Shown: one piece after another, positions 4,226 through 4,619 of the stretch
How positions within the stretch are numbered: position 1 is the first letter of the stretch
Layout: the number at the start of each line of letters is the position of its first letter
From: a virus
Length of the DNA: 6,046 bases
IMG/VR virus record: IMGVR_UViG_3300029219_000085
Span: 1 to 6,046 of that record
Strand: one strand, 5' to 3'
Translations under genes and position numbers: made by a program
The notes under the pieces: model-generated
The model's input: only the letters and a program-made list of their open reading frames with translations
Database searches by the model: none
What the model was told of the DNA's origin: nothing

Positions 4226-4595
4226 TACTTCTTTCTTTTGCTACATCTGTTATCATAGCTTTATTAATTGCATTTACTTCTGAAGCGTCAAAATGTGTTT
4301 CTACCTTGTCAGTTTGACCTAGGAATTGTTTACCTAAGAAAATAGCCATTGCAGGACTCTTTGAAGCTAGTTTAAATTGCGCTCTTCGTAACGATATTCT
4401 TCCTTGCGCACCGAACCTTTTTAAACATTCGGAGAAATCAGTTCCATATGTACGTTTACACCATTTTGATAGTGTCTTATCTGTCGTGTTAAAAAAATAA
4501 CATACTTCTGCTTGTGTGCATTGAATAGCTAACAATTTTTCAAATTCTTCTTTGTCGAAATCCTTGTTAGGTCTTCCAACTTTTCCATTCGCTAT
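4209..4595 (-). CDS. terS: terminase small subunit, putative AUA start; the track ORF 4209..4535 starts at an internal TTG
   Basis: The frame is open from TAG 4613..4611 and reads K G D V I I A N G K V G R P N K D F D K E E F E K before the TTG. The sequence GRPNK...EFEKL.AIQCT..E...FF......L..WCKR.YG...ISLRR....LA......MAIFLGKQFLGQTD matches the recalled HTH-type TerS N-terminus. SD AAAGGGGA (4610..4603) is followed by ATA ATA (4598..4593), with 5 or 8 nt spacing. I chose ATA 4595, which gives (M)ANGKVGRP. There is no in-frame canonical start upstream of 4535. Confidence 0.7.
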   Translation of the reverse strand: MANGKVGRPNKDFDKEEFEKLLAIQCTQAEVCYFFNTTDKTLSKWCKRTYGTDFSECLKRFGAQGRISLRRAQFKLASKSPAMAIFLGKQFLGQTDKVETHFDASEVNAINKAMITDVAKERSIEDFE

Positions 4596-4619
4596 TATTA
4601 CATCCCCTTTCTATATTTA

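Follow-up and report, generated by a model that had tools for sequence, protein, structure and literature searches.

Initiator-type tRNAs with altered anticodons as candidate readers of private start codons in phage packaging and head genes

Where does translation of a gene begin when its reading frame offers no canonical start codon? This question is raised by the small terminase gene (terS) of a phage sequence, IMG/VR virus record IMGVR_UViG_3300029219_000085, of which positions 1 to 6,046 were analysed (the window; 6,046 nucleotides). An initial annotation of this DNA proposed that TerS starts at one of two adjacent ATA codons behind a Shine–Dalgarno sequence (SD), with an indel in a nearby A run as the competing explanation. 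Here, we find support for an SD-guided, non-canonical ATA start and narrow it to the second ATA (4595..4593). While that part of the proposal stands, it lacked two elements that we describe below: an initiator-type tRNA gene with a UAU anticodon at 5084..5009, and two further genes that start at ATA. Together with sister tRNAs from other viral contigs, these elements make it quite likely that private start codons are decoded by initiator tRNAs which phages encode and whose anticodons have mutated.

The start of terS

On the minus strand, terS reads TAG(4613..4611) AAA GGG GAT GTA ATA ATA GCG AAT GGA AAA GTT GGA AGA CCT AAC AAG and continues through GAA TTT GAA AAA to TTG(4535), in frame with the 108-codon open reading frame (ORF) that begins at this TTG (4209..4535). 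As had been claimed, the frame is open from the TAG onwards and the N-terminal motifs (GRPNK and EEFEKL) are encoded 5′ of TTG 4535, the first canonical start; there is no ATG, GTG or TTG in the terS frame between the two. Searches found >1,000 TerS homologues, and those listed begin with M-x(1-5)-(G)RPxK (e.g. MSGRPRKEF, MAKAGRPQKDF and MANQKRGRPLK). In the alignment, (X)ANGKVGRPNK shares columns with MAENKGGRPKK, MATNKGGRPPK and MANQKRGRPLK, and K11, F18, L21, C26 and T27 are invariant. The window protein is classed as a helix-turn-helix-type small terminase of the PHROG 606/309 family (E = 1.7e-8 and 9.5e-7), with the conserved (G)RPxK...FExL...QCT segment present. Pfam gave no family match for it, and when the terS region was compared by megablast with 50,697 phage records, nothing matched.

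Relatives were compared in nine independent window-type contigs: the window itself, ENA ERZ28581253 and ERZ28644177, Logan SRR35865788 and five IMG/VR contigs. The A4 run (4584..4581, correctly read as A4 in the window), the in-frame stop and the ATA are kept in 9/9, including the diverged L003 (L-numbers are labels of the other contigs and loci used in comparison). Between ATA and TTG, the distinct codon changes over these contigs are 9 synonymous and 3 non-synonymous, with no indel. This comparison, which the initial annotation had suggested as a check, thus came out in favour of the ATA frame, with the homologues' Met in the column of ATA 4595.

Of the two ATA codons, the second is the sole one kept in L003, where the first is AAA. 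From the aligned GGAGG core, the distance to this ATA is 7 nt in the terS of the window, L003, L004 and L006, measured after aligning each SD to AGAAAGGAGGTGATC. The spacings given initially (5, 8 and about 15 nt) need correction: recounted from the last SD base (4603), they are 4 nt for ATA 4598, 7 nt for ATA 4595 and 14 nt for an ATG at 4588. Other lineages repeat the arrangement. The terS of L006 reads TAA ATA GCA AGA ACT GGA AGA CCG, with the ATA directly after the in-frame stop, no other candidate, and AAGGTGA as SD, and the L007, L027, L012 and L021-type terS have an SD-aligned ATA GC(N) where relatives have ATG GC(N).

The remaining ways of starting TerS fare poorly. A start at TTG 4535, the gene callers' choice, would turn the GRPNK region into an untranslated relic. 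We consider this very unlikely: no SD lies ahead of the TTG, the upstream codons show the synonymous excess given above without a stop or an indel, and the GRPxK...FEKL segment carries the invariant columns K11, F18 and L21 and is present in all ~70 homologues, which start M-x(1-5)-(G)RPxK and not at the equivalent of L4535. A terS pseudogene was also considered and rejected. Hardly more credible is a start at ATG 4588..4586, which lies outside the terS frame (as noted initially) and opens a separate 19-codon ORF, followed by a programmed −1 slip on GAA AAG (A_AAG) into the terS frame, giving MEK-VGRPNK. Slipping of tRNALys on A_AAG is a known −1 mechanism, and ATGGAAAAGT is conserved in the window-type clade. 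However, the ATG lies too far from the SD (14 nt), G GAA AAG does not have the X XXY YYZ form of a slippery heptamer, and the ATG is accounted for by the codons AAT/GAT GGA (N/D-G). Furthermore, an equivalent ATG is absent from the L006, L007, L027 and L012 terS, which also lack canonical starts yet keep SD and ATA, and the portal and third gene (see below) show equal ATA anatomy without a slippery site. A frameshift would thus fit the window clade only, with a poorly placed ATG, and the model is unneeded. Finally, homopolymer indels are common and a true A5 would yield MEKVGRPNK, but a sequencing or assembly error concealing a canonical ATG can practically be discounted, as A4 recurs in all nine assemblies (ENA, Logan and IMG/VR, the diverged L003 included) and a canonical start is likewise missing in unrelated terS lineages and in the portal gene. 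The conserved A4 and the 9:3 synonymous changes without indel remove the A5 and the TTG 4535 readings together.

Some further details of this region were observed. A minimal ATG-TAA 'start-stop' lies in or beside the terS SD at 4598..4603 on the minus strand (GGGGATGTAA); it is kept in the window-type clade and L003 (GGAGATGTAA) and absent from the other ATA-start terS lineages. In L003 (1270..2080), a 97-aa ORF and a gene for a PAPS-reductase-family protein are inserted between the DUF6275 gene and terS; SD and ATA are retained despite this two-gene insertion. In the 97%-identical relative L001 (678..1043, P0001), the gene call runs past the terS stop (...IEDFEWWKILKDIKAYIR), which points to an altered stop codon or to fused genes where terS and terL overlap.

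An initiator-type UAU tRNA and its association with ATA starts

Two further late genes, portal and a third gene at the window edge, are predicted from the same anatomy to start at an SD-aligned ATA like terS. The large terminase gene (terL) ends ...AGG AGG TAA, followed by GAA and the portal ATA (2887); no SD precedes the first canonical start of portal, TTG 2794. Portal homologues are mostly 460–468 aa long, compared to 467 codons from ATA 2887, and several have Met in that column. The invariant portal residues G19, A26 and I30 are encoded 5′ of TTG 2794. The ATA does not vary over 18 distinct sequences, in which codons 1–33 have 13 synonymous and 8 mostly conservative non-synonymous changes without stops. 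The protein matches PHROG 533. The third gene has the order GGAGG (70..66), 7 nt, ATA (58..56), encoding (X)AIEYLDKSGL..., and residues 1–200 of its full-length homologue align to positions 1–195 of the PHROG 24103 profile. All three ATA starts are preceded by A. Following a first residue that would be (f)Ile or Met, the predicted N-terminal peptides are ANGKVGRPNK, ETSNTRNPWFQNYLNER and AIEYLDK.

The tRNA gene (5084..5009, minus strand) lies ~400 bases upstream of terS and was found by ARAGORN, which labels it tRNA-Ile, and by Rfam (49 bits, with 1:72 flagged non-canonical). Its sequence is AGCAGGAUAGAGCAGUAGUAGCUCGUCGGUCUUAUUAGCCGAAGGUCGAAUGGUGCAAAUCCUUCUCCUGCAACCA, and in UAU-tRNA loci it is the sole tRNA. 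By its sequence features, it is an initiator-type and not an Ile-type tRNA. It is 76% identical to the E. coli initiator metZ and ≤62% identical to 18 other E. coli tRNAs (Ile1 60%, Ile2 58%). Among annotated features of the 50,697 phage records, its best matches are all tRNA-Met, and the Listeria and Staphylococcus ones among these are of initiator-type sequence and located in tRNA clusters. The A11:U24 pair of its D stem (G10 A11 G12 C13 / G22 C23 U24 C25) is a feature of bacterial initiator tRNAs. The acceptor stem combines an A1·A72 mismatch (5084/5013) with G2:C71, C3:G70 and A73; an unpaired 1x72 plus pairs at 2:71 and 3:70 makes up the formylase determinant (PMC6265465). The anticodon stem reads G29:C41, G30:C40 and U31·G39, with the loop CUUAUUA (U37). 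The run of three G:C pairs of initiators (29–31:39–41) is interrupted by the U·G at 31:39, and by A29:U41 in L002; the middle pair G30:C40 is kept in all family members. G30:C40 alone is enough for function in the P site and as an initiator, and au/GC/GC and GC/GC/gu variants occur naturally (PMC5389676). The anticodon is UAU and not the CAU of initiators; complementarity to AUA is shared with an elongator tRNAIle, while a paired 1:72, Y11:R24 and a purine (t6A) at 37 are replaced by A1·A72, A11:U24 and U37.

Base pairing in the cloverleaf is nearly complete: over the family's 23 distinct sequences, 99–100% of positions in the four helices are paired, with compensatory change at 13 pairs, a level reached by 0/500 shuffles. 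Position 1:72, however, is unpaired in 21/23 of these (as A·A, C·A or G·A) and forms U1:A72 in 2/23, while G2:C71, C3:G70 and A73 are invariant in 23/23. Some tRNA search patterns partly imposed the 3′ side, and one pattern left the 3′ end free; this search returned the same 44 tRNAs, all ending GCAACCA, with A72 and A73 invariant. A11:U24 is present in 14/16 unique sequences where the search did not impose it, and the L004 type has G11:C24. The L002/L003-type variant was recovered by alignment and an nhmmer profile.

Presence of this tRNA goes together with missing canonical starts. Among terS loci fetched and assessed with the family alignment, 19/19 without a canonical start carry the tRNA (L074 has it elsewhere on the same contig), and a canonical start is missing in 0/72 loci without the tRNA. 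Starts were then counted in a strict tally of unique contexts (SD run ≥5, spacing 5–9 nt, ORF ≥80 codons, with canonical starts excluded upstream and within 6 codons); a looser tally was discarded, being inflated by purine-rich spacer codons adjoining ATG starts. The tRNA-positive loci (551 kb) have 161 ATG, 41 ATA, 14 AAA, 0 ATT and 2 ATC starts, compared to 292 ATG, 9 ATA, 17 AAA, 11 ATT and 12 ATC in the tRNA-negative loci (731 kb); 3/9 of the ATA cases in the latter come from L074/L076, window-type relatives cut at the contig start. The share of ATA (41/43) has a binomial p of 3e-21 and the Fisher odds ratio is 28, both inflated by contig relatedness. The ATA arrangement of terS therefore exceeds chance in two respects, being kept in nine independent contigs and with SD-aligned ATA far commoner than ATT or ATC. 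Among internal Ile codons of tRNA-positive loci, ATA makes up 27%, ATT 50% and ATC 22%, compared to 29% ATA in tRNA-negative loci; internal ATA usage is not raised, which argues against a role in codon supplementation.

Besides these counts, several observations concern the tRNA loci. In three other UAU-tRNA phages (L004 1167, L011 1644 and L012 2134), the sigma-like regulator upstream of the tRNA also apparently starts at an SD-aligned ATA. Trp-CCA, Ser and Gly tRNA genes lie just upstream of terS in unrelated phages whose terS loci have no UAU tRNA (L083, L084, L095 and L107), which suggests that phage tRNAs repeatedly occupy the site ahead of the packaging module. The T loop of the window-type tRNA, UGCAAAU, has G at position 55, and its D loop is AGUAGUA; a GGTGCAA T loop recurs in tRNAs of the CCU and CUU classes described below, with AGUAGUA-like D loops (L371, L267, L384, L407 and L427). 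The combination of T loop and D loop in these variants may reflect a covarying tertiary contact.

Sister tRNAs, a proposed mechanism and its main competitor

Viral contigs were scanned with anticodon-free initiator-type patterns, and the class counts given here are of the matches listed. Among these, 109/117 have CAU, and the remainder includes other anticodons. Bodies with the same U31·G39 were found among the matches listed with CCU (at least 9 distinct sequences), CAG, CUU (at least 3) and CGU. Every sister anticodon (UAU, CCU, CAG, CUU and CGU) is one base from CAU. A CAU version with U31·G39, the anticodon-stem variant common to all non-CAU tRNAs, occurs in at least 52 loci (L247–L435 viral contigs). 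Nucleotide 37 is mostly U in the non-CAU tRNAs and A in the CAU ones.

It was predicted beforehand that contigs with a sister tRNA would use the cognate codon as SD-aligned start, and this was borne out. The UAU class has 38 ATA starts, with 0 AGG and 1 CTG; the CCU class at least 9 AGG starts; the CAG class at least 10 CTG starts versus 7 ATG; the CUU class at least 4 AAG starts, with 0 other near-cognates among the matches listed; and the CGU class at least 1 ACG start. In the CAU control, no near-cognate codon is enriched among the matches listed. Genes with predicted private starts encode portal (PHROGs 533, 64 and 156), major head protein (422, 283 and 267), TerL, TerS, tail completion and RusA proteins, and their PHROG profiles align from positions 1–5 at the predicted starts. 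Within single families, the codon follows each genome's tRNA: one portal family has 31 ATA and 3 AAG starts, and one major-head family 5 CTG and 4 ATA starts.

A second dependence involves the base preceding the start codon. At cognate starts of U37 tRNAs, the −1 base is A in 49/53, and an A37 tRNA (loop CUCCUAA) has T there in 7/7 of its cognate starts; for comparison, 58% of ATG starts in the U37 loci are preceded by A and 22% by T (Fisher p = 1e-7). Experiments with A37 variants of E. coli tRNAfMet have demonstrated that nucleotide 37 of P-site initiator tRNA pairs with mRNA position −1 (PMC10018350), which marks the covariation as a signature of initiation and not of elongation. Among individual loci of the scans, the L246 match was rejected as a chance match, L307 (1.6 kb) has no cognate starts, and in L415 a single doubtful tRNA resembles an initiator, its anticodon apparently being AAC (loop UUAACUU); this contig has one GTT candidate aligned to an SD.

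These data suggest the following mechanism. The SD AGAAAGGGGA would position the 30S subunit at terS ATA 4595..4593, where the phage tRNA, a putative tRNAfMet descendant with a UAU anticodon, would decode the ATA in the P site. U37 would add a fourth pair, so that U37-U36-A35-U34 faces A(-1)-A-U-A. Portal (ATA 2887) and the third late gene (ATA 58) would use the same device, and synthesis of packaging and head proteins would thereby come to depend on the phage's own initiator tRNA. Support comes from the anatomy of genes and tRNA, their conservation across contigs, the co-occurrence of the tRNA with start-less terS, and three covariations (among cloverleaf pairs, between anticodon and start codon, and between nucleotide 37 and the −1 base). 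Anticodon mutants of E. coli tRNAfMet are charged according to their anticodon. By this analogy, the UAU tRNA is probably aminoacylated with Ile, and Ile would be the likeliest first residue of ATA-start proteins. We infer that the tRNA is also formylated and used by IF2 and the 30S subunit. Candidate purposes would be timing or gating late or packaging genes on expression of the phage tRNA, insulating their translation, or keeping initiation possible during an attack on the host's initiator tRNA. Use of the device by major head genes makes it unlikely that it simply down-tunes expression.

The competing explanation that survives best holds that ATA is read inefficiently by host tRNAfMet(CAU), as a near-cognate codon, keeping TerS and portal low, and that tRNA(UAU) has no part in this, serving as an elongator that helps to decode AUA. 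In its favour, the degenerate triplets able to support initiation include AUA (PMC5499595), TerS and portal are low-copy proteins, and ARAGORN calls the tRNA a tRNA-Ile. Yet the initiator-like body with its unpaired 1:72 disfavours elongator use (PMC6265465), internal ATA is not raised in the tRNA-positive loci, and start-less terS never occurs without the tRNA. Furthermore, major head proteins, required in hundreds of copies, use a non-canonical start too, the start codon follows the anticodon over five classes, and the −1 base follows nucleotide 37. We regard this explanation as unlikely, and an elongator role for the tRNA was rejected on its initiator body, unpaired 1:72 and unraised internal ATA usage.

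Several points weigh against decoding by a dedicated phage initiator. All evidence is computational, and the loci counted lie on related contigs, many of them taken from a single IMG/VR data set, so that p-values overstate independence. In the tRNA itself, the series of three G:C pairs is broken (29:41 is G:C or A:U, 30:40 is G:C and 31:39 is U·G), a U at position 37 is unusual, and the window type has a bulged T stem, the T loop UGCAAAU and no GG in the D loop; ARAGORN misses the L002 variant. One UAU tRNA with A37 and a U1:A72 pair (L322) has no SD-ATA starts in 8.5 kb. Methionyl-tRNA synthetase (MetRS) needs a CAU anticodon, so charging must rely on other synthetases, and for the CAG (Leu) class an anticodon-directed route is not obvious. 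AUA can also support weak initiation with the ordinary initiator (PMC5499595), so that some translation may proceed without the phage tRNA.

Weighing both sides, a group of gut phages probably carries orthogonal, tRNAfMet-derived initiators (UAU, CCU, CAG, CUU and CGU, mostly with U37) and opens its terminase, portal and capsid genes with the matching private starts (AUA, AGG, CUG, AAG and ACG), whose −1 base pairs with nucleotide 37. Such tRNAs would be the first non-CAU initiators found in nature and would amount to start-codon reassignment; virion production would rest on the phage tRNA and might no longer need the initiator tRNA of the host.

Genomic setting, known systems and meaning

The genes of the window follow the minus-strand order SSB, small ORF, sigma-like regulator, tRNA, DUF6275, terS, terL, portal and head genes (Table 1). 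The tRNA is flanked by two hairpin-plus-T-run elements at the boundary of the packaging module. The remaining window genes, at 4883, 695 and 399, have ordinary SD-ATG starts. The terL start is ambiguous: both candidates overlap the end of terS and have a weak purine-rich SD each, and relatives' terL is called from the equivalent of 4216. A head-protein gene (PHROG 1220; 692..1432, minus strand) has ATG 1432 as its sole possible start, 2 codons past an in-frame TAG, with no SD upstream of this ATG (tggcgatagattagtactatATG). By TerL, the nearest cultured relatives are C. difficile siphophages at ~38% identity. A tRNA pattern scan of 185,579 species genomes gave 87 matches, all by chance, with no real tRNA and no prophage copy.

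Table 1. Coordinates of the tRNA, start sites and neighbouring genes in the window
Feature	Position	Strand	Remarks
Sigma-like regulator gene	5111..5437	-	ATG start overlapping preceding stop (ATGA)
Palindromic hairpin followed by TTTTTT	5108..5124	-	Between sigma-like regulator gene and tRNA; terminator prediction places it on the + strand
tRNA with initiator-type body	5009..5084	-	Anticodon UAU at 5052..5050; ARAGORN, Rfam tRNA
Terminator-like hairpin and T run	4908..4926	-	Immediately 3′ of tRNA
DUF6275 gene	4620..4883	-	Between tRNA and terS; ordinary ATG, SD AAGGAGG
In-frame TAG closing the terS frame upstream	4611..4613	-	Read from the sequence
terS SD AGAAAGGGGA	4603..4612	-	Aligned GGAGG core ends at 4603, 7 nt before ATA 4595; SD run of 7
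Putative four-base start site, A(-1)+AUA	4593..4596	-	Complementary to tRNA nucleotides U37-U36-A35-U34
terS coding sequence, re-annotated	4209..4595	-	Predicted start ATA 4595..4593, stop TAA 4211..4209, 128 codons; product (X)ANGKVGRPNKDFDKEEFEKLL...
Out-of-frame ATG 4588 ORF	4529..4588	-	19 codons, MEKLEDLTRISTKKNLKNC*; includes A4 run 4584..4581; not the terS start
TTG chosen by gene callers for terS	4533..4535	-	Internal Leu of EFEKLL; no SD upstream
terL	2891..4225	-	Starts at TTG 4225 or TTG 4216, overlaps terS stop; no ATA candidate
Portal SD AAGGAGG	2894..2900	-	Within terL 3′ end, 6 nt before ATA 2887
Portal coding sequence, re-annotated	1484..2887	-	Predicted start ATA 2887..2885, 467 codons; first canonical start TTG 2794 internal
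Third-gene SD GGAGG	66..70	-	7 nt before ATA 58
Third ATA-start gene	1..58	-	Predicted start ATA 58..56; product (X)AIEYLDKSGLTLLISKIK..., continues past window edge

How does this arrangement relate to known systems? Bacterial tRNAfMet (CAU), including its phage copies, shares with the window tRNA the 76% identity (to E. coli metZ), the 1:72 mismatch, G2:C71, C3:G70, A73, A11:U24 and G30:C40. The phage tRNA differs in having UAU instead of CAU, U31·G39 instead of a G:C pair and U37 instead of A37, and the window type further differs in the T arm and D loop. Viral contigs often carry canonical CAU copies, L156 among them. In contrast, elongator tRNAIle(UAU), as in Mycoplasma mobile, B. subtilis suppressors and rare-codon supplementation, shares the reading of AUA by UAU, whereas the phage tRNA has an unpaired 1:72, A11:U24 instead of Y11:R24, U37 instead of A, and 58–60% identity to Ile tRNAs.

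Anticodon-mutant initiator tRNAs have reportedly been engineered by Schulman and RajBhandary. In such constructs (amber; tRNAfMet GAU, GAC and AAC), the mutated anticodon likewise makes the complementary non-AUG codon a start. In one such study, engineered changes of the initiator anticodon create matching non-AUG starts (bioRxiv 10.1101/2021.05.25.445580). Those are laboratory constructs, whereas the tRNAs described here and their cognate start codons are natural, appear co-evolved, and are phage-borne, with the starts concentrated in head and packaging genes. Quadruplet pairing, between nucleotide 37 of tRNAfMet and position −1 (PMC10018350), is matched here by U37 with A and A37 with U, as a natural covariation alongside a changed anticodon, and probably adds specificity for the phage tRNA.

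A further parallel is the recoding of stop codons in crAss-like, Lak and other gut phages, where a phage tRNA also alters the reading of codons enriched in late or structural genes and so couples their translation to expression of the phage genes; here too, the tRNA anticodon matches a codon abnormally used in late genes of the same genome. Ivanova 2014, Borges 2022 and Peters 2022 are said to have described such recoding with suppressor tRNAs. Stop-codon recoding acts at stops in elongation, while the device proposed here would act at starts in initiation, with an initiator-type tRNA. The AUU start of infC, through which IF3 autoregulates its own synthesis, is likewise a conserved non-canonical start used as a regulatory device, but it relies on host tRNAfMet and discrimination by IF3, without a dedicated tRNA. 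To our knowledge, all known cellular and viral translation begins with a CAU initiator tRNA, which reads non-AUG starts through mismatches, and we know of no natural non-CAU initiator tRNA. A literature search, with most subscription journals outside its coverage, found no description of one either. A private start codon read by a phage's own initiator tRNA looks like a natural, previously undescribed device.

If this reading is right, genetic-code variation would gain a new layer, one akin to the recoding of stop codons in phages and located at initiation. It would also explain a systematic annotation error: 1,406 sequences are clustered under the truncated TTG call of portal, and calls for terS either lose 20 codons or gain spurious extensions. 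The question would then arise which amino acid begins ATA-start proteins. The tRNA and its four-base start site would provide evolution-tested, orthogonal initiation parts for synthetic biology. For the phages themselves, the device would be a means to gate or insulate the translation of packaging and head genes.

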